From Candidatus Poribacteria bacterium (lineage in GTDB: Bacteria; Poribacteria; WGA-4E; WGA-3G), in NCBI GenBank assembly GCA_965198235.1, contig OZ240248.1:4768001-4832000 (forward strand): a stretch of 64,000 nt of DNA, in the 5' to 3' direction. A model generated the notes under the pieces. The model was not told the DNA's origin. It saw nothing but the letters and a program-made list of their open reading frames with translations, and searched no databases. Within the stretch, counting starts at the first letter, position 1. Every line of letters begins with the position of its first letter. Below, piece after piece: positions 21,672-38,306 of this stretch. A program made the translations under genes and the position numbers.

Positions 21672-23081
21672 ATGGAACAACAAAGGCAACAGGAGCTCAG
21701 AGGGCTTTTTCACATGTTGGAGCACACCGCAAAAATCGCAGAGGACGCCGCGTTAACGGGAGCGTTCAGTGGTGGCGAAACGCAGTGCATCTCCCAATTC
21801 AATAACGTCCTCAAACGTCTCAGTGACATCAACGCAATACCTGATGGACTTTTTGAAGTGCTGCAAGCAGACGCGTCCTTTAGCCAGATTGGAATCGCTT
21901 GTCATCAACTCGCCGCCTACCTCAACGAAGAATTGGATACGACCGCAGATTTCAAGGGATGGTTCTCCAGTTTCTTCGGAAAACGGTTCATGGAAAATCT
22001 AACAGAGGAGTTGGCAGACAAGCCATTCGGCGACTTAATCCGCAAAGCTGTTCCAGATTTCTTAACTGAGACGACACTGGAAGACATCGTTGAGGTGTTT
22101 CCTGTCGCGCTCGGTGGAAGGTTAACGGTTGATGCTGATTTCGGGGCAATTGATGTGCAGAGCGCAGAGGGTGATAACCTCTCTGTCCGCGTCCGACGCG
22201 CCGCACAGTTGAAGGAAGACCGGCGTGCGGGGGAAGTTCTCAAGAATTTTGATGTACAGATGACACACGAAGCAACGGATGTCAAAATTGAGGCGAAATT
22301 CAGAGGTCCGGTAAAGCAATGGAAAAGGGCGAAAAAGCGCTTGGATGTCCAATTTGAGATCGTCGTTCCGCGAAACTATGCACTTGATTTGAAGACCGCG
22401 GATGAGGAAATTTCCGTTGTGGATATAGGTGGAGATGTGAATGTTCGCACAGCCGGTGCGGGACTCCGTTTACAAAATATCACCGGACGTATTGATGGAA
22501 CAACTTCCGGTGGAAACATAGATCTCAAGGCGTTCAAGAGCGACGTGGCACTTCGAACAAGTGGCGGGAATATTACGCTTGAGGGAGGCACGGGCGATGT
22601 CAAAGCCAAAACATCGAGTGGAAACATCCGGGTTACCGATGTCATGGGTGCTGTCAACGGGGAAACCTCCGGCGGCAATGTTACCCTAAGGGAATGCAAA
22701 GGCGGAGCAGACGTGAAAACTGCTGGCGGAAGTATAGAGGTAGAGAACGACGGACCCGTCCTGGCGAAAACGAGTGGTGGCTCTATTCGCTGTCAACTCC
22801 AAGAGGCAGTTTCAAGTCAAAACTTGCTACTGGATCTGGAAACAACAGGTGGCAGTATCAATGTTTCGCTCGTTCCGGATATTGCTGCGACAGTCGAAGC
22901 AAGGGTGCTTGGAGGTTCAGTGACCACAGAATTTCCGGTAGCGGTGGAGACGGCAGGTGCTGTCAAACCCGATCAGTTGCATGGAACTATTAATGGTGGG
23001 GGACCACTTCTGCGACTCTTTTCCGTCGGCGGGAACGTCATACTTAGGAAGTCAGAGGGACACAATCCAACAGAGGTATAA
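21672..23081 (+). CDS. DUF4097 (beta-solenoid) protein with N-terminal helical domain
   Basis: Repeated 'TSGGNI/TAGGSI' units; no signal peptide. Confidence 0.8.
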   Translation: MEQQRQQELRGLFHMLEHTAKIAEDAALTGAFSGGETQCISQFNNVLKRLSDINAIPDGLFEVLQADASFSQIGIACHQLAAYLNEELDTTADFKGWFSSFFGKRFMENLTEELADKPFGDLIRKAVPDFLTETTLEDIVEVFPVALGGRLTVDADFGAIDVQSAEGDNLSVRVRRAAQLKEDRRAGEVLKNFDVQMTHEATDVKIEAKFRGPVKQWKRAKKRLDVQFEIVVPRNYALDLKTADEEISVVDIGGDVNVRTAGAGLRLQNITGRIDGTTSGGNIDLKAFKSDVALRTSGGNITLEGGTGDVKAKTSSGNIRVTDVMGAVNGETSGGNVTLRECKGGADVKTAGGSIEVENDGPVLAKTSGGSIRCQLQEAVSSQNLLLDLETTGGSINVSLVPDIAATVEARVLGGSVTTEFPVAVETAGAVKPDQLHGTINGGGPLLRLFSVGGNVILRKSEGHNPTEV

Positions 23082-23213
23082 CGTGTTGAAAATTTGAAAG
23101 CAACACTTCATTGTTGTAAACCTTACACCCTCAACCAACGCTGGCGAGGTTTCCAACCTCGCCCTCTTAGGCATCCAAGAATTGTATATTTTGCTATAGT
23201 TTGGAGATGAATC

Positions 23214-23465
23214 ATGGGATTACTGTCGATTCTCAGTTTAATATGGGGTATATTGGCTATTATCGGGATGGCAGTTGCCATTATCCCGTTTCTTGGGGCA
23301 CTCAATTACCTTAACATTCCGTTCGCAGTCTTTGGATTGCTTTTCAGTGTCCTTGCGCTTGTCCTATCGTCGAACAAAGAATATGCTGTTGCTGGGTGTG
23401 TCCTTTGTGGCGTGGCCATTTTCTTGGGTGCCATCCGACTTGTCTTGGGATTCGGGGTTCTCTAA
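23214..23465 (+). CDS. Small membrane protein
   Basis: 83 aa with three hydrophobic segments. Confidence 0.65.
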   Translation: MGLLSILSLIWGILAIIGMAVAIIPFLGALNYLNIPFAVFGLLFSVLALVLSSNKEYAVAGCVLCGVAIFLGAIRLVLGFGVL

Positions 23466-23474
23466 TTAGACCTT

Positions 23475-23630
23475 CTGACATACTCCCAAACCTAAAGGAT
23501 TGGGGTTCTTTTGTTCCTTTTAGAAACATTCCTTGGGTTTAAGCCAAGGCAACAGGGACTTTCAAACGAAAGCCCAAGGGCGGTGTCATTTTCATGGGTG
23601 TGCCCATGTCCGCCACTACAGGGTCGCCGA
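23475..23630 (-). ncRNA. Putative omega-RNA (reRNA) scaffold of the IS605 TnpB
   Basis: Placed by its position across the tnpB 3' end and the right end. The guide would be the flank aaggtctaattagagaac. The 5' limit is approximate. Confidence 0.55.
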
Positions 23631-24771
23631 GGTGACCGAGATACTTTTGTCTTATATTTATAGCACCTACGCCGTCGCGATGATACTGAAAACCGCAGTT
23701 GCAGGTATAGTTTCGGTTGTTTGGTTTCTTTCGGTTGCCACACTTCGGGCAAGTTTGAGAGGTATACGCCTCATCTATGACCTCTACCTTGATACCGAGG
23801 GATACCTTTGCCTTGTAGGTAATCAAGTCCGTGATTTTACCGAAAGCCCACTGGTGGAGTTTTTGGTTCGTGCGTTTACCGTAGTCAATGTTTTCTCGGA
23901 TACCCGTAAGGTCTCCAAGAATGATTCTGCCGATACCTATAGTTTGGCAATACTTCAGAAACTTTGTGGTATGCTTATGGAGTGCATCTTTGATTTGGTC
24001 GTCAATCTTTTTGATACGCTTCCACTTTCTACGTGTGAGTTTCCACCAGCGTTTAGAATGGCGTTTACACCTACTGATAGCACGACTGAATTCAGCAAGC
24101 ACTTTATTCCGCAGTCGGTATAGCGAGCGGATATACCGTCCATTGAAAATACGTGTATCTGCTCCGTCATGACTGACAATCGGGTGGATTTCGCCAATAT
24201 CAACGCCTATGATACCGCCACCTGTTTCGGTGGGTTTGGTTTCATATCTATAGGAGAAATGGAGCGTCCATTGACCGTGGTTATAGCATAAATCAATCGT
24301 TGCGATATGTTCTGCTTTAGACATATCAAAGTTTTTCGGCAAAGGGATCCGTAGTTTCGGTCTACCTTTTCCCATGGAAAGTTCAACACACTTTTCTGCG
24401 AAGGTAATAGCAGATTTTAGCCAGCGTGTCGTCATGTAGTTTTTTTGCTTGTTTGGAGGTTTCGGACTCCGAATGCCACCCCTCTTTTTCAACGCAGAAT
24501 AGGACACCCAAGATTTGAAGTAGTGTTTCCGAATCGCTTGAATACTTTGCGAATGGAGCGGTTGCTTTTTACTCAGCTGTTTATCCACCCACCCCTCACA
24601 ATCACCCCCGAAATAGAAGTGGTCGTGAGCATGTGGATAGCCACGATGCCATTGATACATAGTCATTTGATACTTACACTCATTCCAAACGGAGGCAGAC
24701 GCAGCGTTGATTTCAGAGTATCTCGATTGTGGCGCTATTTTGAGTACCTCGGTTCTGTGAAACTTTGGCAT
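23539..24771 (-). CDS. tnpB: RNA-guided endonuclease TnpB (rearranged RuvC-II)
   Basis: RuvC-I 'GVDIG', 'ILGDL', 'DEAYTSQTCPKCG', RuvC-III 'HRDGVGAINI'. Confidence 0.92.
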   Translation of the reverse strand: MPKFHRTEVLKIAPQSRYSEINAASASVWNECKYQMTMYQWHRGYPHAHDHFYFGGDCEGWVDKQLSKKQPLHSQSIQAIRKHYFKSWVSYSALKKRGGIRSPKPPNKQKNYMTTRWLKSAITFAEKCVELSMGKGRPKLRIPLPKNFDMSKAEHIATIDLCYNHGQWTLHFSYRYETKPTETGGGIIGVDIGEIHPIVSHDGADTRIFNGRYIRSLYRLRNKVLAEFSRAISRCKRHSKRWWKLTRRKWKRIKKIDDQIKDALHKHTTKFLKYCQTIGIGRIILGDLTGIRENIDYGKRTNQKLHQWAFGKITDLITYKAKVSLGIKVEVIDEAYTSQTCPKCGNRKKPNNRNYTCNCGFQYHRDGVGAINIRQKYLGHLGDPVVADMGTPMKMTPPLGFRLKVPVALA

Positions 24772-25185
24772 TTAGACACCTTTTTGGTTCTCAATATACT
24801 GCTTTAGAACTTCAAGGGTAACATTTCCTGCACTCGCTACAAACTTTGAACGCGTCCACAGACAAGGTAAACGACGCTTAAGTATTGGAAACTCATTGCG
24901 TAGTATTTTTGCTGTGTAACCTTTGATTTTTCCAATCACACTTGTAACTGAAATGTCGGGGGGAATACTCGCAAGCAAATGAATGTGATCAGGCATACTT
25001 TCAACTTCTCTGACAACATAGGGATATGCCTCTTGTTGTTCAAGAATTAATGCTTTGAGTCTTGCTTGGATTTCTGGTGATAGAACAGAACGACGATACT
25101 TCGTGCACCAAATCATGTGATACTCACAAGCATATAGACTTGTTTCTGTGGAAATATATTTGTGGTCATTGTTAGTAATATTCAT
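24772..25185 (-). CDS. tnpA: IS200-family Y1 HUH transposase
   Basis: 'YHMIWCTKYRR', HUH motif 'DHIH', 'QYIENQK'. Its stop codon abuts the tnpB ATG. Confidence 0.95.
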   Translation of the reverse strand: MNITNNDHKYISTETSLYACEYHMIWCTKYRRSVLSPEIQARLKALILEQQEAYPYVVREVESMPDHIHLLASIPPDISVTSVIGKIKGYTAKILRNEFPILKRRLPCLWTRSKFVASAGNVTLEVLKQYIENQKGV

Positions 25186-25192
25186 ACTATTA

Positions 25193-25221
25193 ATTATATC
25201 ACAAAGATTAGTTGTTGTCAA
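25193..25221 (-). promoter_or_regulatory. Consensus sigma70 promoter of IS605 tnpA
   Basis: TTGACA-17 nt-TATAAT; ATG lies 7 nt after the -10 box. Confidence 0.75.
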
Positions 25222-25599
25222 GTCAATTTGTAAAATATATTAGTTTTTGATATGTCAACCGATTAGCCGCTACTACATCCCAAACCTAAAGGATTGGGTT
25301 TTGTAGCGGAAGGTTTGATAAGGTAGGTAGAACAACTTCTATTGGGGAGCGGATTTTATCAAACGAGGAAAACGTATAGGGCAAGTAACTGCACAAAGTT
25401 TTCTATGATAATCTAATTCTTTGCGTTGTTTTCTATATTTTTGAAAAATGATATTGAATTTTCTATAATAATAGGAAATAATATGTTATTATGGAACACA
25501 GATTAGTAAAGATTGGTATGGTAAAATGGGTGCAGTTTATTCAAACTCACGTACTTAACGCGAAACTCACGTAAAAGTGAGATTCATTTCTCTAGGAGG

Positions 25600-26304
25600 T
25601 TGAACGGCATGAAAATTATGTTGGTATTAGCAGGATTTGTGTTGATGATAGCCTATATTGTTATCAGCACGAGCGACATGGCACAGGCGGAGGAAGTCTT
25701 GGGAACAGGAACGGATGAACTGCTAGGAGGAGACCTAACCGACCCAGAAGACGATGGTGATCCTGAATCAGATGACGATTACAACGCCATTTTCTCAGCC
25801 AATGATGAACCCGGATTCGCGGGCGGGGAATTTGCGTTTAACGTCTTCGATAACCGCCTTGGCCCCAGCAATGACAAATGGTGCTGCGGACGTGGGGGCG
25901 GCATTCCGGATGAAGGTCTACACGTGACAGCTGAGTTTGAGGAGCAGTACGCATTGACACACTTCACCGTATCTTCAGCGAACGATGTTCCTCCGAGGGA
26001 CCCTACAGTGTGGGAGATTCAGGGGTCGAACGACGGCGATGAATTTACGACCATCTTTTCTCACGACGGGGATAGCTTTTGGGAACAGCGACTGCAAGTC
26101 GTCCTTTTTGAGGCAGGGGAAGATTACGACGTTCAAAAAACCGGGTATCGGTTTTTTCGGCATGTTACTTTTGACACCGCATCGAACCCAGCCGGGGCGT
26201 ACTTTCAAATTGGCGAAATTGAGTACTTCGGCGATGATAGTTTTCCCGTAGACCCTAAAGCCAAGCTCACAACCACATGGGGACGCATCAAAAACGTCCG
26301 ATAA
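25600..26304 (+). CDS. Secreted discoidin/F5-8-like protein with C-terminal TTWG tail
   Basis: Signal peptide; 'SANDVPPRDPTVWEIQGSNDG', 'YRFFR', 'QIGEIEYFG'; tail VDPKAKLTTTWGRIK. Confidence 0.75.
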   Translation: MNGMKIMLVLAGFVLMIAYIVISTSDMAQAEEVLGTGTDELLGGDLTDPEDDGDPESDDDYNAIFSANDEPGFAGGEFAFNVFDNRLGPSNDKWCCGRGGGIPDEGLHVTAEFEEQYALTHFTVSSANDVPPRDPTVWEIQGSNDGDEFTTIFSHDGDSFWEQRLQVVLFEAGEDYDVQKTGYRFFRHVTFDTASNPAGAYFQIGEIEYFGDDSFPVDPKAKLTTTWGRIKNVR

Positions 26305-26567
26305 GCGCAAATCTCGGACATTTTCTAAATCGGCTTGAATCCAGTAATAACTTGGTTTGAGTCGTTTTTCATATCCGCTTGAAACCGTATGGACTCTACT
26401 GGGGAGGACCTTTTCGATTATGAACCGCGAAAATCTTCATGCTCATATTGATTATGAGCTTATAACAGCGGTTCATCTTGGCGCAAATGCCAGCAAGAAA
26501 GCGAAGTCAACAACGAATGCAACGATCGTGAGCCGTGCCCCTTTGTATTCATTATGGCTCTCTGCCC

Positions 26568-27281
26568 TAGTGTTGTGTCAATCTTCTATTGATGGATATA
26601 GTTTCTTGAGTTTGATGCGGGCATCGTCAGTAGTAAACCGCCATTGGACAGTGGCACGCTTTTCATTTCTTTGGTTTTGCCATGCCTGAACCTCGCGTTT
26701 TAGGGTCTGTTGGTCGGGTATACGCCTCGAAAGACATTGCCGGCTTAGCACGGAAAGTTCAATCTCAGCGATATTCAACCAACTGCCATGCTTCGGGGTA
26801 TAGTGGAACTGAAGTTTTTCGGCAATACGCCTGGCTTGATGCGCTGGAAACGCTTTATATAACGAAGCCGGCTTATGCGTATTGAGATTGTCACAAACAA
26901 GCGTAATCTTTTGAGCATCTCGAAAGTGAACATCCACCAAATCTCGACAGATATGAGCAAAATCAACGCTCGTGCGTCTGTCAGTGACTTCAACATGTCG
27001 AAATCCCTGAAACGGAGCAAAAATCATAAACAGATTACTAACGCCATTGCGGGCGTATGCATAATCATGGCGACTCGGCATGCCTTGAGCAATGGGTAAA
27101 GGCTGCCGAGTTTCTTTGAGGTGTTGTTGACTCGTCTCATCAACACAAATTACAGGAGTGGCAGCCTCCTCGGGGCGATGGTAGATTTCTAAGACATCTT
27201 CCATCGCAGAGGTGAACTCAACCGAAGTCTCAGGATAACATCTTTCACATTAACTGTCAATACCATGTTGACGAGGCACTA
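26568..27281 (-). mobile_element. Internally deleted IS630-family element with TIRs and TA duplication
   Basis: Ends TAgtgttgtgtcaatcttctattg and (reverse complement) TAgtgcctcgtcaacatggtattg. The element is only about 710 bp. Confidence 0.8.
26578..27204 (-). pseudogene. IS630 transposase DDE domain lacking the N-terminal HTH
   Basis: 'MEDVL', 'VDET', 'CDNLNTH', 'YTPKHGSWLNIAEIE'. Confidence 0.85.
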
Positions 27282-27412
27282 AAACACCTCGCCGTTGGGC
27301 AAACGGAGAGTCTAAACGCTTGTGGAGTCTGAGTAAGACCTCCACGAGGGAGGCGTCGGATAATGAAGCAAGAATCAAAGAACCCCACTCCTTTAGGTGT
27401 GGGAGTTGTCAG
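27282..27412 (+). ncRNA. Orphan TnpB omega-RNA / IS605 right end (no tnpB ORF)
   Basis: aaacgcttgtggag...gtaagacc...tgaagcaagaa, then aaagaaccccactcctttaggtgtgggagttgTCAG. It also encodes a TnpB-like tail, LAVGQTESLNACGV*. Confidence 0.75.
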
Positions 27413-27439
27413 TCATATACCACACCGAAAGGAAAATCA

Positions 27440-28162
27440 ATGAATTGTCTTGATTATGGACTTTCTTTTATCAACTCTGTTGGCAACGGGAATGCCCCCC
27501 GCTTTTGGGTCGAATCTCGATGCCGCATAATAGATAACACAGATGGAAGTTTCAGCGATTATTACCAATGTGGTTCGTGTAAGAGTGAACACACCTTTGC
27601 GGAGAAAAATCTCTTCATAAATCCAAACTATGACTTCCTCCCTGTTTTTGGCGAAGAACATATAGCAGTATTCAGAAGGCATGCTTACTGCAACGATAAC
27701 TACGTCGAGTATAGACCGGCGCGGGATTATTGGGGAGGCACCCTGTTTGATGTTCAAGAGGCATCGCCGGTCCGGGTCCTTGATAGCAACGCAGCCATTT
27801 TTGAGGCGACACAAAAATGTCTACCCATCGTAACGCACACAGAAATATGGGATACCAATACACATCAGCGGGCAATTATCGAGTGTCCGGTTAAAACGAT
27901 GAACATAGATGAAAACGCAGGCATCTACCAAGTTGATACCGGAATTGTTCTATTTCCAGATCTGTCAAAGCGATACGATCGGCAGATTGAGACGTTCAGC
28001 CTCGCTTACGTTGCTTTCAACGCACCGCACTTCGCTGACTTCGTTATCGAACGCCCCACTGCCATCATTGAAAATGGAGTGGAAGTTACCCAAGTTCACC
28101 ACTATTCCGAAATCCGGAGTTTAGAAGCAAAGAATACCGTGTTCTGCATCGGTGATTTTTGA
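27440..28162 (+). CDS. Hypothetical protein
   Basis: RBS aagga before ATG at 27440; globular-looking sequence with 'CGSCKSEHTF'; no family recognised. Confidence 0.7.
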   Translation: MNCLDYGLSFINSVGNGNAPRFWVESRCRIIDNTDGSFSDYYQCGSCKSEHTFAEKNLFINPNYDFLPVFGEEHIAVFRRHAYCNDNYVEYRPARDYWGGTLFDVQEASPVRVLDSNAAIFEATQKCLPIVTHTEIWDTNTHQRAIIECPVKTMNIDENAGIYQVDTGIVLFPDLSKRYDRQIETFSLAYVAFNAPHFADFVIERPTAIIENGVEVTQVHHYSEIRSLEAKNTVFCIGDF

Positions 28163-28303
28163 CAGACACTCCCATTTAGATAAATCTTCTTGCAAAAATT
28201 TTGGGCTCCGTTTATAATACCCGATTATAGCACCGAACCGGACATCAGATTTCAAACGGTGCTAATCACAACTCGCATGATCTTTACACGGAGGACCAAA
28301 AAC

Positions 28304-29629
28304 ATGAAAAGTGTTCGCATAAGTCTTGTCTTAGTGCTAATACTTGCACTTGCGTTTGTTAGTGCCTCGAAAGCGGATAACCACCAATCCCAATCCTTAA
28401 CCGTTGTCTGGGCAGAATGGGATCCGGCTAATTATTTGCAGGAACTCTCTAAGGACTTTACCACCGAAACCGGCATTGTTGTCGACGTCATCCAGATTCC
28501 GTGGCCGAATTTCCAAGATAAGGTCTTCACGGCTTTTGTCGGAAAGAGCGATCTTTACGACATTGTTATTGGCGATAGCCAATGGCTCGGTCGGAACTCT
28601 CAAGGTAGGAACTATATCAATTTAACGGATTGGATTAATGAGAATATAGATGTTGATTCTATCTATGGACCAGCGATGACAGCGTTTGCTGAGTATCCAA
28701 AAGGCAGCGGAACATACTGGGCATTACCTGCGGAGGTGGATGCTGCTGGGTACGTCTATCGGAAAGACCTATTTGAAGATCCGAACGAAATGAAGGCATT
28801 CCAAGCAAAGTATGGCTACGCGCTCGCTCCGCCGAAAACGTATGACCAACTCCGCGATATAGCCGAATTCTTCACGCGTCCGGATAAAGACCTCTATGGT
28901 ATTGCGACATGGTATAGCAAGGAATACGACGGCATTACGATGGGTTTCCAACAGGTAATGTGGAGTTTTGGCGGCGCATACGGCGATGCGGAAAGTCATA
29001 AAGTTGCCGGGTACATTAACACAGCGGAGGCTGTTAAAGCTCTTGAATTTTACACGGATTTGCTCCAGTTTGCCCCCCCTGATGCACCGAACTACTATTG
29101 GGCGGAGACGTTGAATGCCTATAACTCGGGTAAGGTCGCAATGGCGATGAACTACTTCGCCTTTTTCCCCGGCGTAGTAGACCCTAAATCGAATGCAATT
29201 TCTCACGACAAGAGTGGTTTCTTTATAGCGCCTTCTGGTCCGAAAGGGCATTATATCAGTATCGGTGGACAGGGTATGTCTATTTCTTCCTATTCTAAAA
29301 ACAAGGATCTCGCCAAGCAATACATGAAATGGTTTATGCAGAAACCAGTTCAGGAGAAATGGGCAGCACTCGGTGGGTTCACACCACACAAAGAGGTATT
29401 GCAGTCGGATACGTTTAAGACAGCGACCCCCTTTAACGAAGCTTTCGCCGCGAGTTTCCCGTACCTACGCGATTTCTGGGCAGTGCCGGAATATGCAGAG
29501 CTCTTAGAAGTTTGCCAGACAAATTGGAGTGAAGCCATCTCCAAAATCAAGTCTGCAAAGGATGCACTGGACTCCATCGCGCGGAAACATGAGGAAATCT
29601 TTGAGGACGCAGGCTATTACGACGAGTAA
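28304..29629 (+). CDS. Sugar ABC transporter substrate-binding protein
   Basis: Signal peptide; 'YRKDLF', 'PPKTYDQL', 'GKVAMA'. Confidence 0.9.
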   Translation: MKSVRISLVLVLILALAFVSASKADNHQSQSLTVVWAEWDPANYLQELSKDFTTETGIVVDVIQIPWPNFQDKVFTAFVGKSDLYDIVIGDSQWLGRNSQGRNYINLTDWINENIDVDSIYGPAMTAFAEYPKGSGTYWALPAEVDAAGYVYRKDLFEDPNEMKAFQAKYGYALAPPKTYDQLRDIAEFFTRPDKDLYGIATWYSKEYDGITMGFQQVMWSFGGAYGDAESHKVAGYINTAEAVKALEFYTDLLQFAPPDAPNYYWAETLNAYNSGKVAMAMNYFAFFPGVVDPKSNAISHDKSGFFIAPSGPKGHYISIGGQGMSISSYSKNKDLAKQYMKWFMQKPVQEKWAALGGFTPHKEVLQSDTFKTATPFNEAFAASFPYLRDFWAVPEYAELLEVCQTNWSEAISKIKSAKDALDSIARKHEEIFEDAGYYDE

Positions 29630-29778
29630 AGATTGCGAGGGTGGAAACACGTTTCTATTGTCCTTCCATCCTCCATTCAAGTCACCATTCTTCCAAATCA
29701 TTTCATAAATTCTGCCTACAATCATTTGTCGCGCACGATGACAAGGAGACAGATCTCTATAACACAAGAGGTAGCACA

Positions 29779-30492
29779 ATGCAGAAACAGATTAAGGCAG
29801 CACCGACAATCGTTTATCCCGAATCAGATGGTAAACCAATGGCAGAAACCGATCAACATCGAAAACTCATGATGGATTTTATTTTCATGCTTGAAAACCA
29901 CTTTGAGGAGGTCAACGATGTGTATGTCTCCGGCAACCTACTGATATATTATGAAGAGGGCAACATCCACAAATCTGTGGCACCCGATGTGTTCGTTGTC
30001 TTCGGTGTTAGTAAGAAAGATCGGCGGACGTATCGGACATGGGAGGAGGGAGGCACTCCTGATTTCGTGTTGGAAGTGGCGAGTCCAAGCACGTATAATA
30101 AGGATATAACTGACAAGAAAGCACTGTATGCGTCTGTGTTAGGTGTTCGGGAGTATTACATCTATGACCCGTATGGAGAAGTCCAGCCACATTTTCAAGG
30201 GTATCGTCTCGTAGAGGGTAGGTATGAAACGATAGAACCTGTGGATAGCCGTTTACCGTCCCTTGTGCTCGGTTTGGAATTAGGGGAGCGTGATGGGATT
30301 CTGAGTCTCTACGATGCGAAGCGTTCGGCATGGGTTTCCCCACCGAAGACACGAGTATCAGAGGCGGAGACGCGCGCTGAAAATGCCGAAACACGCGCGA
30401 CACGAGACGCGCAGGCCCGGCAACACGCCGAAACGGAACTTGCCAAAGCTTTGGAAATTATTGAACAGCTGAAAGAAAAAACGGTGGACTAA
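29779..30492 (+). CDS. Uma2 (DUF820) family endonuclease with coiled-coil tail
   Basis: 'YPESDGKPMAET', 'APDVFVVFGV', 'PDFVLEVASPST', 'GVREYYIYDP'. Confidence 0.9.
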   Translation: MQKQIKAAPTIVYPESDGKPMAETDQHRKLMMDFIFMLENHFEEVNDVYVSGNLLIYYEEGNIHKSVAPDVFVVFGVSKKDRRTYRTWEEGGTPDFVLEVASPSTYNKDITDKKALYASVLGVREYYIYDPYGEVQPHFQGYRLVEGRYETIEPVDSRLPSLVLGLELGERDGILSLYDAKRSAWVSPPKTRVSEAETRAENAETRATRDAQARQHAETELAKALEIIEQLKEKTVD

Positions 30493-30601
30493 CGAACCTC
30501 TTCCTACCGGAAAGGCACATCGCTTGATGATGACGACAAATCAAATTAAGTTTTGTCCGGTAGAGGACAATTAGGGATATACTGAAACCTCCTCAGATAA
30601 T

Positions 30602-31522
30602 ATGCTAACCAACCACCCCCATCGAACGTCGCGCGGGATGAGCGACTATCAATTGAAGATGGCATTTATCATGCCCACCATGATTTTGCTCATCTTGATG
30701 AACATCTTTCCACTGCTGTGGTCGCTGTACTTGAGTTTCCATCGCTACAAAGCCTCGATGCCTGTTGCCCCGAAATTTATCGGTGTCCGTAATTATTCAC
30801 GCCTCCTCGCCGATCCAGATATCTGGGGTTATTTTCAAACCACTGCCTATTTTGTGATCCTTGCGGTATCAGCGCAATTCTTTATCGGATTCGGATTGGC
30901 GTTGCTCCTGAATCGGGACTTCCGGTATAAAGGCTTCGTCACAACGCTGCTTCTGCTACCGATGATGCTATCGCCTGTGGTCGTTGGGCTCTTTTGGCGC
31001 TTTATCCTCTCTTCAGATAACGCCGGTTTACTAAACTTTTTCCTCAGCCCCTTTTTAAAGTCGCCTATCGGGTGGACCACCAATCCAAAGGTAGCAATGT
31101 TAGCGGTTGTCATTGTGGATACATGGATGTGGTCTCCATTCATGATGTTGATTGCCTTGGCGGGACTGAGCGCAGTTCCGAAATCTCTCTACGAGGCTGC
31201 TGATGTCGATAGAGCCTCCGCTTGGTTCAAGTTTCGATGGATTACCCTCCCGTTAGTATCCCCGCTTTTACTGATTGCCCTTCTGTTCAGAACAATGGAT
31301 GCCTTCAAGATGTTTGACATCGTCTATGTGCTTACACGTGAGGGTGGACCTGGCACTGCCACGGAAACTGTATCAATGAACCTCTATAAACTCGCTTTTC
31401 GGAACTACAACACCGGTAAAGCGTGTGCGATGGCGTATATTCTGCTCATCATTATCGTTGCCCTGAGCAATATCTACGTAAAATACCTCAATCGCGTCAA
31501 AGGGGAGACACAGGAGACCTAA
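30602..31522 (+). CDS. Sugar ABC permease (MalF-like)
   Basis: EAA loop 'LYEAADVDRAS'. Confidence 0.92.
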   Translation: MLTNHPHRTSRGMSDYQLKMAFIMPTMILLILMNIFPLLWSLYLSFHRYKASMPVAPKFIGVRNYSRLLADPDIWGYFQTTAYFVILAVSAQFFIGFGLALLLNRDFRYKGFVTTLLLLPMMLSPVVVGLFWRFILSSDNAGLLNFFLSPFLKSPIGWTTNPKVAMLAVVIVDTWMWSPFMMLIALAGLSAVPKSLYEAADVDRASAWFKFRWITLPLVSPLLLIALLFRTMDAFKMFDIVYVLTREGGPGTATETVSMNLYKLAFRNYNTGKACAMAYILLIIIVALSNIYVKYLNRVKGETQET

Positions 31523-32742
31523 TGCGGCGTCGGAAAAGTTTTGTCCACTACCTCATATTGGTGTTTATTGCTGTGGCTGTGGTTGTCTATATCACCCCGA
31601 TTTACTGGATTTTGGTGACCTCTCTGAAAAGGCTGGCAGACATTACCACAAAACTTCCGAAGTTTGTTTTTGATATATCGTTAGAGAACTATCAGAAGTT
31701 GATGCCTTCAGAAGGTGTGGCAGATGTAACATATCTGTTTTTAGGCGAGGTGTTTGTGGGATTATTGCTGTTCGGTTTCTTCTCGCTTTTTAATGTGAGG
31801 TGGTTACCCCGTGCTTTGTCGCTCCGAAATCTCGGCTTAATCTGGAACAGCATTTTCGTTTTAACGTGTCTCTATAGTTTTCTGACGCTGCAACCGCTGC
31901 AGAGTCGTCTCCAGACGGATGCCCGTTTCAACTTTCTGCTACTCATTTTAGGCACAATTATAGCCTATCTCCTGATTGTCCCGTGGAAAAAGTCTGGAGG
32001 GCTGACATCGCAGACAACAAAAAAACAGCGACTCACCTTTGTGTTGCCAAGCATCTTTGGAACAGTAGCGATTTGCATCGCACTGGCAAACGGTGGTTCC
32101 AAGTATTTTTACCAGCTGCTGAATAGCATTATCATCGGTGGTGGTAGCACGATTCTCGCTGTAGGGCTCGGAACGCTTGCGGCTTACGCTTTCTCTCGGT
32201 TCGACATCGCTGGAAAGGACGACCTGCTCTTTTTTATCCTTAGCACACGAATGCTCCCACCTGTCGTCGTTGTTATCCCAATCTACCTGATGTACAGCGC
32301 ACTTGGGTTGCGGGATACGCACTTTGGCCTGATTTTGCTCTATACCACCTTTAATGTCTCATTTGCGGTGTGGCTCATGAAGGGGTTCATTGATGAAATT
32401 CCGAAGGAGTATGAGGATGCCGCACTCGTTGATGGTTACTCTCGGTTCCAAACCTTCATGAAGGTAATTTTACCGCAATCTGTCACAGGTATTGCTGCGA
32501 CTGCCGTATTCTGTCTGATTACAGCGTGGAACGAGTTCGCGTTTGCGCTCGTTCTCACAGAGGTCGGCGGCAGAGCCGTGACCGCTCCCCCTTCAATTAC
32601 GAGCGCGACCGGTTCTACTGGTATGGATTGGGGAAAAATCGCCGCGGGAACCTTTGTGTTCCTTCTACCCGTTGCCGTTTTCACCTTCCTGATGCGGAAT
32701 CATCTTCTGCGTGGTGTCACATTTGGCGCAGTGAAGAAGTAA
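31522..32742 (+). CDS. Sugar ABC permease (MalG-like) with extra TM insert
   Basis: 'EDAALVDG', 'AWNEF'. Start overlaps the upstream stop (TAATG). Confidence 0.9.
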   Translation: MRRRKSFVHYLILVFIAVAVVVYITPIYWILVTSLKRLADITTKLPKFVFDISLENYQKLMPSEGVADVTYLFLGEVFVGLLLFGFFSLFNVRWLPRALSLRNLGLIWNSIFVLTCLYSFLTLQPLQSRLQTDARFNFLLLILGTIIAYLLIVPWKKSGGLTSQTTKKQRLTFVLPSIFGTVAICIALANGGSKYFYQLLNSIIIGGGSTILAVGLGTLAAYAFSRFDIAGKDDLLFFILSTRMLPPVVVVIPIYLMYSALGLRDTHFGLILLYTTFNVSFAVWLMKGFIDEIPKEYEDAALVDGYSRFQTFMKVILPQSVTGIAATAVFCLITAWNEFAFALVLTEVGGRAVTAPPSITSATGSTGMDWGKIAAGTFVFLLPVAVFTFLMRNHLLRGVTFGAVKK

Positions 32743-32783
32743 GGCTTTTCTGAATTCTGACAACTGAATGCGTTTAATGGAAT

Positions 32784-32812
32784 TTGACTTCCGCATCGGT
32801 TTCTGTTATACT
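32784..32812 (+). promoter_or_regulatory. Sigma70 promoter
   Basis: TTGACT-17 nt-TATACT with an extended TG. Confidence 0.65.
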
Positions 32813-32842
32813 TATCGCAAGCAATAGAGGAGGGCGCGCAAA

Positions 32843-34243
32843 ATGAACAATCACACACTGCGACTCACCGATGAAGAGATGCGGGATTTCATCATCAACG
32901 GATACGTCAAGGTAAAGGTCGATTTCCCGCCAAGTTTTCATGAGAACGTTTACCAACAACTCGACGCAATGTTTGAAGGGACGGGTAATTTGGGCAACAA
33001 CGTCCTACCCCTCATTCCTGAAATTCAAGAAATTTTCGATCATCCCCTTGTTCACGGTGCAATGCAGGGAGTACTCGGTGAAAACTATGCGATGCACTCG
33101 CACCGATACTGCCATTTCAACCAACAAGGTAGTGAAGGTCAGAATTTTCATAAAGACAGTTATGAAGGGGACGGGCAGATTCGTCGCCACCGATGCCGTT
33201 GGACGATGGCATTCTATTATCCGCAGGATGTCACGGAGGATATGGGACCCACCGCTGTGTTACCCGGGTCGCAGTATTACGAAACAGGTGAAAGCGCACA
33301 CCAACAGCCTGATCTCGCACTCACTGGCGAAGCAGGGACAGTGACAATTGTCCACTACGACTTGTGGCACCGGGCAATGCCGAATCAGAGTGACAAGAAA
33401 CGGTATATGTTGAAGTTTCTTTTTATCCGACTTGATGAGCCACAAATACCCTCGTGGAAAAGCGATACCCACGACTGGTCCGCCCTCGGCAACGGAGAAG
33501 AATCCGAACACCCAGAATTATGGGAATCGCTATGGGATTGGTCTTACGGGAAACAGAATGGAGCTAACGGTGTCTCGCACGCTGAGGTGGATACCCTTAT
33601 TGGAACCCTGAACAGCGATAATGAGAGAGAGCGGTTAAATGCCGCGTATCGCTTGGGGCGGATTGATGCTGCCGTGCCTGCCTTGAAACAAGCGTTGTAC
33701 AGTAAATCTGATGCTATCCGTGAATATGCAGGATACGCTTTAAGCCTCACTGGAGCACCCGCGGTTCCGATGCTCATTGATGCCTTACAAACCACAGATG
33801 ATTCAGTGCGGGCGAGCGCAGCGTTTGCCTTGGCGGATATGGGGAAAGCCGCACAAGAGGCACTGCCTGCGCTAACCACTGCCGCACAGGATCCCGACGA
33901 ATGGGTCCGACGACACGCCACAGAAGGATTGGGACTTATCGGACAACAGGTTTCCAAAAACGCGGATCTATCCGAGGCTGTGCGGGTCTTGATGAATGGG
34001 TTGCGTGATGACCATTATGCGGTTCGTGATAACGCTGCCCGTGCATTAGCGAAATTGGGCACGCTTGCTGAACCTGCGATTTCTGCGCTTGTTGCGCAAC
34101 TGGAAGATGAGAATCGATATGTCCGTTTCCATGCTGCTTTAGCGTTAAAGGAGATTAAGACCCGTGAAGCACAGGACGCACTCTTCAATCACCTGTTTGC
34201 TTCGCGTTGGTGTGCGCTAACGACACGCGGAACGCCATATTAG
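32843..34243 (+). CDS. Phytanoyl-CoA dioxygenase (PhyH) family domain fused to HEAT repeats
   Basis: HxD motif 'FHKD', 'GPTAVLPGS', 'LWHRA'; C-terminal 'VRASAAFAL'-type repeats. Confidence 0.88.
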   Translation: MNNHTLRLTDEEMRDFIINGYVKVKVDFPPSFHENVYQQLDAMFEGTGNLGNNVLPLIPEIQEIFDHPLVHGAMQGVLGENYAMHSHRYCHFNQQGSEGQNFHKDSYEGDGQIRRHRCRWTMAFYYPQDVTEDMGPTAVLPGSQYYETGESAHQQPDLALTGEAGTVTIVHYDLWHRAMPNQSDKKRYMLKFLFIRLDEPQIPSWKSDTHDWSALGNGEESEHPELWESLWDWSYGKQNGANGVSHAEVDTLIGTLNSDNERERLNAAYRLGRIDAAVPALKQALYSKSDAIREYAGYALSLTGAPAVPMLIDALQTTDDSVRASAAFALADMGKAAQEALPALTTAAQDPDEWVRRHATEGLGLIGQQVSKNADLSEAVRVLMNGLRDDHYAVRDNAARALAKLGTLAEPAISALVAQLEDENRYVRFHAALALKEIKTREAQDALFNHLFASRWCALTTRGTPY

Positions 34244-34323
34244 GGAGCATCGGCTGTTTTGTTGTTTCGATCTCTCTGTTTCGTTAGGAATCTTTCACCA
34301 TTAGGCACGCTTCTCAGACACAT

Positions 34324-34782
34324 TTGCAAACTGTGCCTAAGAAGCGTGCATATCAAACTCGTGTGAGTCTTGTTCCATTTAGCAGATACGCGGGTGACAG
34401 TTCATCTGCCAACGTTTTTGAGATCGCTGGTGGGCTCGACAAACTCGCTGAGGCAATAGCCACACGCCAGCATTTTGAGATCGAGAGAGCCAATCTAACA
34501 GCAGAATCCGGCAGAGACAAGGTGCAGCATATCCTCGGATGCTCTAAAGTTCATGCCAACCGTGTTCTGAATAAATTGAGGGGTGGGAACCTCCGGCGTG
34601 TAACCTTTCGCGAACAGATCCTCTCTCTTCTTGGTGATGGTGAGGAAAAGGCGGCTGAAGTGGTTGCAGCGATTGATGGAAACCCAAAAGCAGTAAACCA
34701 TGAACTCGTAAGACTTGCCAATGCAGGTGAGATTGTAAAGGTCCGGTGGGGTGTGTATGCCCTTCCACCCTCTACATCATAA
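34324..34782 (+). pseudogene. Probable 3' remnant of a winged-helix protein gene
   Basis: C-terminal wHTH 'ELVRLANAGEIVKVRWGVY'; TTG start with no RBS; overlaps the convergent gene. Confidence 0.45.
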
Positions 34783-35305
34783 AGGACATACCCATCTGTC
34801 CTGCAAGTATCCCCAGGAGAGCACCGGCAAACACATCCGTCGGATAGTGGACACCGAGATAAACGCGAGCGACACCCACCAGAGTCCCCCAGCAAAGCGT
34901 CGGAATTTGTAAAATTGGAAAGGTATTCGACAACAGTACCACCATCAGAAAAGCAGAGGCAGTGTGTCCTGATGGAAAACTAAAACGATCCGGTGGACGG
35001 ACCCGAAATTGCACATCGACAATCCGCTCATACGGTCGGTCACGTTTCATTGCTTGTTTGAGGAAGTGGTATAGGAGTCTCTCAAGCGGAAATGCGAGTG
35101 CTGCTGATAGAAGGAGCGGCTTGCTGGTAGCTGAGCCGAACGTCACGTGCACGTATAACGCCAAAAATGGATATAGACACCCGTTAGCACTCCAAGAAAT
35201 GATGCGAAATGAGTGACTCAGAATTCTTCTATCGCCCCAACCAAAGATACGGTTAAACAGGAATGTATCCCATCGGGTTAGACTATTTGTAAATTCTCTA
35301 AGCAT
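34772..35305 (-). CDS. PAP2-family phosphatase
   Basis: 'K...RDRP', 'SFPSGH', 'ARVYLGVHYPTD'. Confidence 0.92.
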   Translation of the reverse strand: MLREFTNSLTRWDTFLFNRIFGWGDRRILSHSFRIISWSANGCLYPFLALYVHVTFGSATSKPLLLSAALAFPLERLLYHFLKQAMKRDRPYERIVDVQFRVRPPDRFSFPSGHTASAFLMVVLLSNTFPILQIPTLCWGTLVGVARVYLGVHYPTDVFAGALLGILAGQMGMSFMM

Positions 35306-35538
35306 AGTTTACAAAGTGAGCAGGTACGCTTAAACACAAACCTGCTGTATCTTTTATCTCCAATTGTCGCTGTTTAATTACTTCACAGGATTCTCATCAC
35401 CTCTCCTGCATCTCCAATTTGATTAAAATTGTAGTGGAAGTATGTTGCATATTTTTAACCAGCATATCATTTTTATATAAAAAATATTGAACAAAGTTGT
35501 GTCAATATTTTTGATTCATACCCCAACATTATGTGTAA

Positions 35539-35723
35539 CCGTTGTGTAGGACTTAAACAAATCTCACAAATATGGTAAAATGTATTAGAATCTATACAAA
35601 TCTACCATGTTTGTTGATTGTTGCCATACTTCCTGCCTCAACGTCCACTGCCTCTCAACGAGGTCTTACACGGACTCCACAGGCGTTTATCGTCTCCTCG
35701 CAACTCGTGGCGACGGTTAAAGG
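35539..35723 (-). ncRNA. Putative omega-RNA of the IS607 TnpB
   Basis: Minus strand aaacgcctgtggagtccgtgtaagacc...tgaggcaggaag downstream of tnpB. Confidence 0.65.
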
Positions 35724-36815
35724 TCAAGCAGGACAGAGATTAATAGCAGCGTTGAGGTCTCTGTCACATTCAAAGCCACATTCGCAACAGTGATATGTGC
35801 GTTCAGAGAGCGTCAAATCTGCTTTCTTGTGTCCGCAGTTGCTACAGGTTTTACTACTGGCGAAGAATTGCGGTGCTTCGGTTATTGGTATGCCACGCCT
35901 ATCTGCTTTGTATTTGAGTTTCGTTAGAAAGCCACCAAGTGCTGAATCGGATAACGCCTTTGCAAGTTTCCTGTTCTTAAGCATGTTGGTGATTTTGAGC
36001 GTCTCAATACCAATAGCAGCGGCTGGACGGACAATCCGTATCGTTGCTTGGTGGTGAGCGTCTTCACGGATATTCGCGATACGTGCGTGGACAGAGATGA
36101 GTATAGATTTCGCTTTATACCCATTCTGACTACCTTTGACTCTACGAGAGAGCCGACGGTTGGCCCGTGCTAACTTCCGCTCATACCGCTTGAGAGGGCG
36201 TGGATTGTCGTAAGTGTCACCGTTAGAACATGTAGCAAGCGTGTTGATACCTACATCAATACCGATAGGTGCTTTATCGTCAAAGAGTGGGGGTTGGTGC
36301 TTATAGTTGCTGCTATCCAATCGTCTGACGGTGAGAGATACATACCACTTGTCGTTACGCTTGGAGACAACAACTTTTGTAATTTCACCACTATATCGCA
36401 ATTCTTCACGCATGCGTATCCAACCTATCTTTGGAAGGTTGACACGTTTTTTACAGACGTCAACAGTTCCTTCGCCATTGTCTGCTTGGTAAGAGCATTT
36501 ACCACTTCGGTTCTTATAGACAGGGAACTTATTTTGTCCTTTTTTCCAACGTGTTACAGCGTCTCCAAGATTGTGAATAGCATTCTTGGACGCATTCTGT
36601 GAGAGGTCTTCACACCAGTCAAACTTATCGTATTTGACTGCATTAAACTCACGCTTAATGTCAATATGACTTCGCCATTCGTCTTGGTCTAAACCGACTT
36701 TGAAAGACGATAAAGCAAAGTTGAAGGCAACACGGGCATAGCCAGCGTGCTGTGCCATAAGCGTGGCTTCCTTATTATTCGGATTGAGTTCTATCTTCTG
36801 TGTTCGGAGGTCCAA
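35724..36815 (-). CDS. tnpB: TnpB with canonical D-E-D RuvC
   Basis: 'GIDVG', 'IGIETL', 'SSKTCSNCG...CCECG', 'DRDLNAAINL'. Confidence 0.93.
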   Translation of the reverse strand: MDLRTQKIELNPNNKEATLMAQHAGYARVAFNFALSSFKVGLDQDEWRSHIDIKREFNAVKYDKFDWCEDLSQNASKNAIHNLGDAVTRWKKGQNKFPVYKNRSGKCSYQADNGEGTVDVCKKRVNLPKIGWIRMREELRYSGEITKVVVSKRNDKWYVSLTVRRLDSSNYKHQPPLFDDKAPIGIDVGINTLATCSNGDTYDNPRPLKRYERKLARANRRLSRRVKGSQNGYKAKSILISVHARIANIREDAHHQATIRIVRPAAAIGIETLKITNMLKNRKLAKALSDSALGGFLTKLKYKADRRGIPITEAPQFFASSKTCSNCGHKKADLTLSERTYHCCECGFECDRDLNAAINLCPA

Positions 36816-37446
36816 GATTGAGTTCCAATTGTTCTTTTTCTTCGGAGACGATATTCTCTATTTCCTCTGCCATTTTCTTGGATTTATGAGAACGTCGTCC
36901 GTAGAGTTTCGCACAAAATACAGTCATGATTTCCGTGATGTCACGCGTAAGTTCTTCCTCGAAGGTAGGTTGCTCACCTTTATTGATAATGACAACTTCT
37001 ATACCTTTGAGTTCACAGATACGAAAAACTATTTCTGCACCAAATCGAAGCAGTCTGTCTTTATGTGTAATAACCAGACGAGACATTTGACCCTGCACCA
37101 TTAATTCAAGGAGGCGGCGTAAGCCTTTTTTATTATAATTCATGCCACTGCCGAGGTCTCTTATGATTTCAGTTTGCCACCCATTCTTATTACAAAATGC
37201 CTCAAGGACGGCATGCTGACGTTCTAAATCTTCCTTTTGATCTGAACTGGAGACGCGGGCATAAGCAATCGTAGGATAGGCTAAATCGTTGACACCTAAT
37301 AACTCTTGGAGACTGTAAAGGCGTGTGCCTTTCGGTGTTCTTTTCGCAGGCTGGATAACACCGCCCTCTTCCCAACGCCGAAGCGTTTGAGGATTAACAC
37401 CGAGTATTTTAGCAGCCTCGCCAATCTTTACAAATCTATCATTCAT
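36775..37446 (-). CDS. tnpA: IS607 serine recombinase/transposase with MerR-type HTH
   Basis: 'IGEAAKILGV...TLRRWE', 'YARVSS', 'HKDRLLRFG', 'LYGRRS'. Confidence 0.95.
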   Translation of the reverse strand: MNDRFVKIGEAAKILGVNPQTLRRWEEGGVIQPAKRTPKGTRLYSLQELLGVNDLAYPTIAYARVSSSDQKEDLERQHAVLEAFCNKNGWQTEIIRDLGSGMNYNKKGLRRLLELMVQGQMSRLVITHKDRLLRFGAEIVFRICELKGIEVVIINKGEQPTFEEELTRDITEIMTVFCAKLYGRRSHKSKKMAEEIENIVSEEKEQLELNLGPPNTEDRTQSE

Positions 37447-37452
37447 ACTATA

Positions 37453-37482
37453 ATTATACCACATTTCTATAGTATTTGTCAA
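37453..37482 (-). promoter_or_regulatory. Consensus sigma70 promoter of IS607 tnpA
   Basis: TTGACA-18 nt-TATAAT; ATG lies 6 nt after the -10 box. Confidence 0.7.
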
Positions 37483-37568
37483 ATAAAATCTTACAATGTA
37501 TAGAAATAAATAAGTTTGTATAGATTTGTCTAAATTTGACTATATTTTAGCCTACTGCAACTTTCCCC

Positions 37569-38306
37569 TCACAGAGAATGTGGATCCACGTAATCGGCGA
37601 GGGCTCGGAGTGCTATAACCTTGTAATCGTTTTCGTAGAGATACGCCATATAATCTTCAAATTGCTTTGGTTCTGTGTGAACCCATGGATGCTCAATATC
37701 CGGCACACCGTGGAACGTAAGGATCGTGATATTCCCATCTGTTGCTTGAGCGAGTGCCCACATGAAGTCATCAAAGTTCCAATTGGGACCGGCGGCTCCT
37801 GTCGTCGGAATCAAGAGGGGATGATGCAGCTGTGGATTGTAAGCAGGTCCGCGGTCCCCTTCTCCGCTGTAAGGGAACTCAGGAGCAACGCCGCGTCTGG
37901 CAAAATGAAAGCCGTGTTCAGCGAGCACTTGGACCGCTGCTTCACCGTGGCTATAACCCGGGTAACAAAACGTTGCCGGTTTTGAAATGCCGTAAGTCTC
38001 ACAACGTGCGTCAATATGTGCTAAATCCGCACTGAGTTCCTCGGCGGGTTGCTGTGTGACGTTTCGGTGATGGCGAGTGTGATTACCAATCTCGAAACCA
38101 CCGTCGTGTAGTCCTGTTACCTCTTCCCACGTCATATAGGCTTCTTTATTCGTGAGGAAGTTGAGTCCTTCGGTGATATAGAAGGTTGCACTGAAGCCGT
38201 ATGCCTTGAGGATCGGAGCAGCGAAAGTCGCCTGTGACTTGCACCCATCGTCAAAGGTAAGCACAACAAGTTTATCGGGGATTGTCTTCTGCAAAACGTT
38301 TTTCAT
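37569..38306 (-). CDS. Polysaccharide deacetylase (CE4)
   Basis: 'LTFDDG', 'GNHTRHH', 'YPG', 'LTFH'. Confidence 0.9.
   Translation of the reverse strand: MKNVLQKTIPDKLVVLTFDDGCKSQATFAAPILKAYGFSATFYITEGLNFLTNKEAYMTWEEVTGLHDGGFEIGNHTRHHRNVTQQPAEELSADLAHIDARCETYGISKPATFCYPGYSHGEAAVQVLAEHGFHFARRGVAPEFPYSGEGDRGPAYNPQLHHPLLIPTTGAAGPNWNFDDFMWALAQATDGNITILTFHGVPDIEHPWVHTEPKQFEDYMAYLYENDYKVIALRALADYVDPHSL

Follow-up and report, generated by a model that had tools for sequence, protein, structure and literature searches.

What is an omega-RNA-like segment directly behind an IS630-family element, with no tnpB gene beside it and with parts that resemble two different transposons? The segment lies in a 64,000-nt stretch of Candidatus Poribacteria bacterium DNA (GCA_965198235.1, contig OZ240248.1, 4,768,001-4,832,000 of the forward strand), which was analysed as a whole and is called the window here. 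A sequence-only reading had proposed that it links an IS605 and an IS607-type element, both resident in the window, and that it could be used as a stand-alone guide. We arrived at a plainer explanation, to which we give a probability of roughly 0.8: the segment is a relic, the 3'-terminal 131-133 bp of a tnpB-only IS200/IS605-family (IS1341-like) Poribacteria element that was cut by IS630, rearranged, and is now inert. Table 1 lists the parts of the relic and its neighbours.

Table 1. Coordinates of the relic, its parts and the surrounding features (window positions).
Feature	Position	Strand	Basis or remarks
Relic: complete omega-RNA scaffold module plus transposon right end	27282-27412	+	131 nt; alignment, structure, covariation
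Last 17 codons and stop of the lost tnpB, L-KHLAVGQTESLNACGV-stop	27280-27332	+	translation; intact congener TnpBs
5' stem of the module, CTCGCCGT...ACGGAGAG	27288-27310	+	helix 1: 5/8 pairs changed on both sides
Scaffold core	27319-27380	+	pattern matches, consensus fold, covariation
Long-range stem of the core	27319-27323 with 27368-27371/27380	+	consensus fold
Second long-range stem of the core	27327-27332 with 27356-27361	+	encloses hairpin 27339-27342 / 27350-27353
Right-end subterminal imperfect hairpin, Y1 TnpA type, CCCACTCC TTTA GGTGTGGG	27384-27403	+	helix 6 of the consensus
Element end GTCAG, probable right-end cleavage motif	27408-27412	+	congener flank homology; contigs of other copies
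Guide-equivalent flank, TCATATACCACACCGAAAGG	27413-27432	+	overlap with the ribosome-binding site of gene 27440-28162
Downstream gene, 240 aa, no Pfam family, intact	27440-28162	+	93-98% identical to congeners
IS630-family element with both terminal repeats and flanking TA	26568-27281	-	aligned with two full copies in the same genome
DDE_3 (IS630-type) transposase piece	26578-27204	-	Pfam DDE_3
Gene with a weak F5/8 type C match, below the Pfam cut-off	25600-26304
Resident IS605	23475-25310	-	Y1 tnpA 24772-25221 (149 aa), tnpB 23539-24771 (410 aa); left end approximate
Resident IS607-type element	35539-37563	-	serine recombinase 36775-37482, 363-aa tnpB 35724-36815, omega RNA downstream

The 5' boundary of the relic is set by the IS630 element. 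Immediately 3' of it the plus strand translates as ...LKHLAVGQTESLNACGV and a stop, and the stretch LAVGQTESLNACGV with its stop (27291-27332) is a TnpB C-terminal tail, so that the earlier description of a tnpB-less omega-RNA and right-end remnant directly behind an IS630 holds. The IS630 terminal repeats read TA-GTGTTGTGTCAA at 26568 and ...TTGACGAGGCAC-TA ending at 27281; the inverted repeat itself stops at 27279 and the TA occupies 27280-27281, which places IS630 in the TA of the tnpB codons ...N-L|K-H.... Compared to the two full copies in the same genome, this IS630 has lost about 530 bp internally, and only the DDE_3 half of its transposase therefore remains. To the left of IS630 no TnpB homology was found, which suggests that the rest of the element was lost by a rearrangement with IS630 as its breakpoint. 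Extensions of tblastn alignments back to 27252 were considered as TnpB remains and rejected, as they run into the IS630 terminal repeat shared with other IS630 copies. Transcript data for this region consist of contigs assembled from four sponge metatranscriptome runs, which hold no strand, ends or level and may include DNA; a contig with a full IS630 departs from the window sequence at 27208/27209.

The 3' boundary can be read from related genomes, 23 of which have the downstream gene. Their homology to our query starts at or after query position 132, equivalent to window position 27413, right after ...GTTGTCAG. At eight of nine aligned congener junctions the upstream side is a shared, empty site of the form TTGACA-17-TAAAAT...ATGAA|TCATATACC..., and the ninth (L007) has a different upstream sequence. 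Because eight of the nine are empty sites, we place the right end of the relic exactly at 27412 and the start of the guide at 27413, which bears out the guide position given in the sequence-only reading. Contigs of other family copies in the RNA libraries likewise part from the window sequence after 27412. Within the eight empty sites the guide-equivalent flank is preceded by ATGAA in four and by ATAAA, ACGAA or ACGGA in the others, and its conservation there indicates that the flank is older than the insertion. In eight congeners (loci L008-L015) the near-consensus TTGACA-17-TAAAAT lies 20-55 nt upstream of the insertion point.

The upstream side of the locus has been rebuilt. The original upstream flank of the empty site is now found at window 22124-23466, and its last ~150 nt, with the native TTGACA-17-TAAAAT promoter and ATGAA, were not found in 23000-27500; in their place are the resident IS605, the gene with the weak F5/8 match, IS630 and the relic. 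As the sequence-only reading had also noted, the relic has no left end: no left-end motif or hairpin was found on the same strand in the flank beyond IS630. The relic and IS630 junction arrangement was met in this genome alone. An RNA-library contig from run X3 joins the right end of a member of the omega-RNA family (equivalent to 27412) to position 25541, and other contigs do so for further IS605-type right ends; 25541, upstream of the gene at 25600-26304, is therefore an insertion site in other strains as well.

Although the element was truncated, its RNA module was not. Folding the relic together with 45 aligned congener modules (L026, L029 and L033, with a replaced 5' part, were left out) gave a consensus of 28 pairs, which make up a 5' stem, an inner hairpin enclosed by two long-range stems, and the hairpin of the right end. 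Half of these pairs (14/28) show changes on both sides, 97.7% of the cells are paired as against 36-55% when the partners are slid, and none of 500 shuffles reached the observed values. The relic retains all 28 pairs. A decaying IS remnant with broken scaffold stems had been named as the alternative to a functional guide; the remnant is indeed our best reading, but the stems are not broken. A comparison of the scaffolds by covariance model had also been suggested, and model R1 matches the omega RNA of the IS607 copy over its full length at 68.3 bits; the 126 bits of the relic are not an independent score, because the relic is in the training set of the model. IS630 missed the omega-RNA module by only 6-8 nt, and complete tnpB-less mini-elements begin at this very 5' limit; tnpB-less copies elsewhere start just 5' of the position equivalent to the 5' stem. 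Given the undecayed scaffold and this shared limit, selection for the module may still be acting. The portion CCACACCGAAAGG of the guide flank is a near-complement (12/13) of the hairpin loop and 3' arm, CCTTTAGGTGTGG (all within 27390-27432), and consequently the predicted fold of relic plus guide pairs the guide and ribosome-binding region (27420-27432) with the 3' arm of the hairpin. This complementarity may be due to chance or to an old end fragment.

Where did the relic come from? Intact congener copies are 89-95% identical to it over the 131 bases. Each follows immediately on a TnpB ORF of about 365-375 aa whose translation ends in ...RDINAAINLKHLAVGQTESLNACGV or ...NLKHLAVGQTESLNACGV and a stop, with no tnpA adjoining. 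TnpB coding sequence is immediately upstream in 36 of 48 aligned congener copies (L032, with a variant motif, is counted as coding) and missing in the other 12. An exact-pattern scan for the core motif, using one genome per species from what is a sample of genomes, returned 66 stretches, 63 titled Poribacteria and three titled 'uncultured bacterium'; a full TnpB lies upstream in 42, a partial one in 15 (seven of them cut by a contig end) and none in nine. Rfam gave no family at gathering score anywhere in the window and, in 23000-37600 with E up to 1, no match that overlaps the relic, and no paper combining TnpB and Poribacteria was found in the literature searched. The relic is a member of an undescribed Poribacteria element family. 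The left-end junctions of this family carry TGAA in all ten cases (four full elements and six mini-elements) and ATGAA in eight of them, from which we infer a TGAA target motif (TAM), in agreement with the ATGAA of the empty site at the relic locus. A sub-threshold Rfam match to HgcC (19.2 bits, E 0.94), which falls on the 3' region of the resident IS605, was disregarded.

Two further observations concern insertions and relics of this kind in congeners. A related tnpB element with a 3' end 78% identical (L020:903-1027, G021:C167) sits about 30 bp downstream of the site of our relic, also after an ATGAA, which in this case overlaps the start codon of that gene; the two insertions struck one small target region independently. 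Three species share, at one locus, an orthologous omega-RNA fragment from the GTGGAG core onward (L026:304-435, L029:57-187(-) and L033:64-195(-)). Its core is well kept and its hairpin is damaged differently in each, and its presence in three species implies that such relics outlast speciation.

The membership of the relic in this family also accounts for its double likeness to the two resident elements. Its end at 27377-27405 (+) matches the IS605 right end at 23483-23511 (-), a pattern that occurs twice in the window and in none of 100 shuffles, and the hairpin thus belongs to the type of the resident Y1 element, as had been proposed. That element ends in ...GTATGTCAG and has the same hairpin type in its left and right ends; its right end shares the hairpin and GTCAG with the relic, with one more base between them in IS605. 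The compensatory change pointed out in the sequence-only reading is real: 27388 C pairs with 27399 G in the relic, and the equivalent pair in IS605 is A with T. The likeness of the core to the IS607 scaffold is equally clear, since 27314-27342 (+) has its counterpart at 35660-35688 (-), 3' of the IS607-linked tnpB, again a pattern with two occurrences and none in shuffles, and the two omega RNAs have the motif GTGGAGT...GTAAGACCTC in common. The IS607-linked TnpB is the closest in the genome to the cognate family of the relic (47-57% identity by tblastn, 54% in the alignment), as its omega RNA is to the relic itself, and this relatedness of the proteins explains the likeness of the cores.

One may also ask whether the relic is a recombinant made in this genome from an IS607-type scaffold and an IS605 right end. 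Within the window, its core is indeed closest to the IS607 copy and its hairpin to the IS605 copy. However, many congeners have this same combination of core and hairpin after an intact TnpB gene, with identities that reach 95%. Over 70 nt, the core and the resident IS607 copy agree at only about 73%, and the Y1-type hairpin recurs at many places in the genome. We consider such a recombinant highly improbable and rejected a chimera of the two resident elements on the strength of the intact congener copies; with it falls the proposal that the relic links them. The double likeness is a matter of common descent within the TnpB lineage and of a shared type of Y1 end, with no recombination here.

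Compared to the resident IS607-type omega RNA (35539-35720), the relic has the same scaffold architecture and the invariant core GTGGAGT..GTAAGACCTC..GGAGGC..GA.GCA.GAA, and the corresponding TnpBs are about 54% identical. It differs in its right end, which has a Y1-type hairpin and GTCAG, not a hairpin-free end ...CTACACAACGG beside GGG. The 30-50 nt between core and guide are wholly different, the IS607-type elements are flanked by GGG in all eight visible junctions, and they are moved by a serine recombinase. Alignments of congener TnpBs by tblastn extend 51 nt past the stop of the IS607-linked tnpB (35673-35723, -), which suggests that this gene was shortened by a stop, relative to its Y1-type relatives, inside the conserved region of the omega-RNA 5' stem. 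The other resident TnpB, of 410 aa (23539-24771, -) and present in three copies, has a Gly for the RuvC-II Glu (IGIGRIIL vs IGIETLKI) and a His for the first Asp of DRD in the alignment. If these substitutions are real, it could be nuclease-dead; misalignment is possible at 26% identity.

Studied examples of omega RNA (reRNA) from tnpB-only elements of the IS200/IS605 family (IS1341 group) are ISDra2 and the ISGst elements. As in these, the scaffold of the relic overlaps the 3' end of tnpB, of which 17 codons remain, the omega RNA ends in a right-end subterminal hairpin and cleavage motif, the guide is flanking DNA, the left-end junction carries the target motif, and a Y1 TnpA would mobilise the element in trans. 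Unlike them, the relic lacks tnpB and a left end, and its putative target motif is (A)TGAA. With its tnpB overlap, its hairpin and terminal motif, its covarying fold and a TAM deduced from the flanks, the relic is an IS200/IS605 right end; with no left end and no recognisable promoter of its own, it is neither a complete IS200/IS605 element nor a PATE. Altae-Tran reportedly described stand-alone omega RNAs in Ktedonobacter in 2021, although a commentary (PMC11610941) makes no mention of them. PATE mini-elements, as presented in the preprint by Meers et al. 2023 (PMC10055086), contain omega RNAs without tnpB on which TnpB would act in trans. They share with the relic an omega RNA that has no nuclease gene and depends on a TnpB encoded elsewhere, but they are two-ended and mobile, whereas the relic is a right end only and lacks the promoter-bearing left part of the congener mini-elements. 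The guides of TldR, a nuclease-dead TnpB-like repressor, are also omega-like RNAs used away from transposition; they adjoin a domesticated tnpB-like gene and target promoters, whereas the guide of the relic matches only its own insertion flank.

Could the module nevertheless act, as the sequence-only reading envisaged? On this account it would be a stand-alone guide in use, loaded in trans most plausibly on the IS607-linked 363-aa TnpB, that cuts insertion-free alleles (ATGAA followed by TCATATACC...) and so favours the rearranged locus after DNA exchange. The full module with its 28 of 28 pairs would suit such a role, and so would the IS607-linked TnpB: its aligned RuvC positions still read D, E and D, it shares 54% identity with the cognate family, and its omega RNA fits the same model over its whole length (68.3 bits). 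The relic has its invariant core nucleotides in common with the omega RNA of this TnpB, which is catalytically intact by its RuvC residues, so that cross-loading could still take place. Four of the eight empty sites have ATGAA with one to three mismatches to the first 16 guide bases, and tnpB-less omega-RNA elements that would need TnpB in trans are common in Poribacteria and appear in print (PMC10055086). Against this, no cognate TnpB is encoded in the 5.17-Mb assembly. The IS607-type elements border GGG and not TGAA, so that the likely TAM of their TnpB would not fit the natural target, and the segment between core and guide is unrelated in the two omega RNAs. A simple consensus scan, for sigma-70 only, showed no promoter on the plus strand in 26900-27600, whereas complete mini-elements do have a strong promoter, TTGAC-N17-18-TATAAT. 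A search with guide plus TAM, which the earlier reading had called for, was run against the genome and gave no TAM-flanked target: the guide is unique in window and genome and matches its own flank alone, and the nearest other site, with 15 of 16 bases and GCGAC in front, is at about chance level. In addition, TnpB is reported (PMC10278001) to make omega RNA by cutting its own mRNA, and the tnpB mRNA that was the source of this omega RNA is gone. Use as a stand-alone guide thus finds no support in these results, and we regard it as unlikely.

A different role is conceivable for the relic as the 5' leader of the gene at 27440-28162, with transcription starting in, or reading through, the IS630 end and the relic, and possibly with regulatory folding. 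The native congener promoter is missing, yet the gene has stayed intact, at 93-98% identity to its congeners; the gene must be transcribed from somewhere upstream, and its transcript would take in the relic. The predicted pairing of 27420-27432 with the 3' arm of the hairpin would fit a regulatory leader, as would one exact RNA-library contig that equals 27383-27514, although it has 30 letters left of the junction, one below our criterion, and could be due to DNA carry-over. However, no promoter-like site is present on the plus strand in 26900-27600, and the RNA-library contigs carry no strand, start or level. A leader that was kept for its function seems about as unlikely to us as a guide in use. 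Among the matches listed from the four runs, no contig spans the IS630/relic junction. A higher summed contig depth over 27333-27473 was considered as a sign of expression and rejected, since it stems from other family copies.

We therefore return to the relic as an inert remnant, for which the order of events was probably as follows. The element would have inserted after ATGAA upstream of the gene at 27440-28162, and this would have put the guide of its omega RNA against TCATATACC.... IS630 then probably entered the TA within the tnpB codons ...N-L|K-H..., after which a rearrangement at the IS630 breakpoint seems to have taken what was left of tnpB upstream, together with the left end and some 150 bp of flank that included the promoter of the gene. 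What remains is a full, still foldable omega-RNA module with its right-end hairpin. In its present state the relic would be inert, at most a passive passenger in the transcript leader of the gene that follows. Lacking a left end, it is immobile and the resident TnpA cannot move it, although this Y1 enzyme may still bind or nick its right end. That one insertion sequence destroys another and a neighbouring promoter goes with it is textbook material, and the locus matters little in itself.

The family to which it belongs is of wider interest. Poribacteria, uncultured sponge symbionts, hold a rich undescribed family of TnpB and omega RNA with a putative TGAA target motif and many guide-only copies, which makes them well suited to studying how widely transposon lineages share guide RNAs in trans. 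It is tempting to speculate that omega-RNA modules are units of selection in their own right in this group, that guide-only copies survive and multiply there by borrowing both Y1 TnpA and TnpB of other elements, and that even our relic is kept and loaded by the non-cognate IS607-linked TnpB, thereby biasing the inheritance of the locus. We hold this view to be a long shot; if true, it would mean that guide RNAs are shared across families, between serine-recombinase and Y1 transposon lineages.

Complete mini-elements that consist of omega RNA alone are common in the Poribacteria group and are a more promising lead than the relic, even though the concept is already published. Such tnpB-less elements of about 290-430 bp include L028:1-427, L030 and L042 (reverse strand), L050, L060 and L088:5957-6252. 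Their parts follow in the order of a left end with a hairpin after (A/C/T)TGAA, a promoter, a short structured spacer, the omega-RNA module and the right end; the promoter is TTGAC-N17-18-TATAAT except in L088, where none was noted. Because the copies L028, L030 and L042 occupy different sites in two genomes, these three are mobile. The window's own genome has 15 matches to the omega-RNA model, with a long TnpB match upstream of four, a remnant of 69-132 aa upstream of three, and none upstream of eight. Matches with no TnpB match nearby include G000:C1:833446-833574(-), 1877577-1877714(-), 401114-401237(+) and 1567551-1567678(+), and each of these four has a promoter-like TTGAC...TA..AT 190-250 nt upstream.
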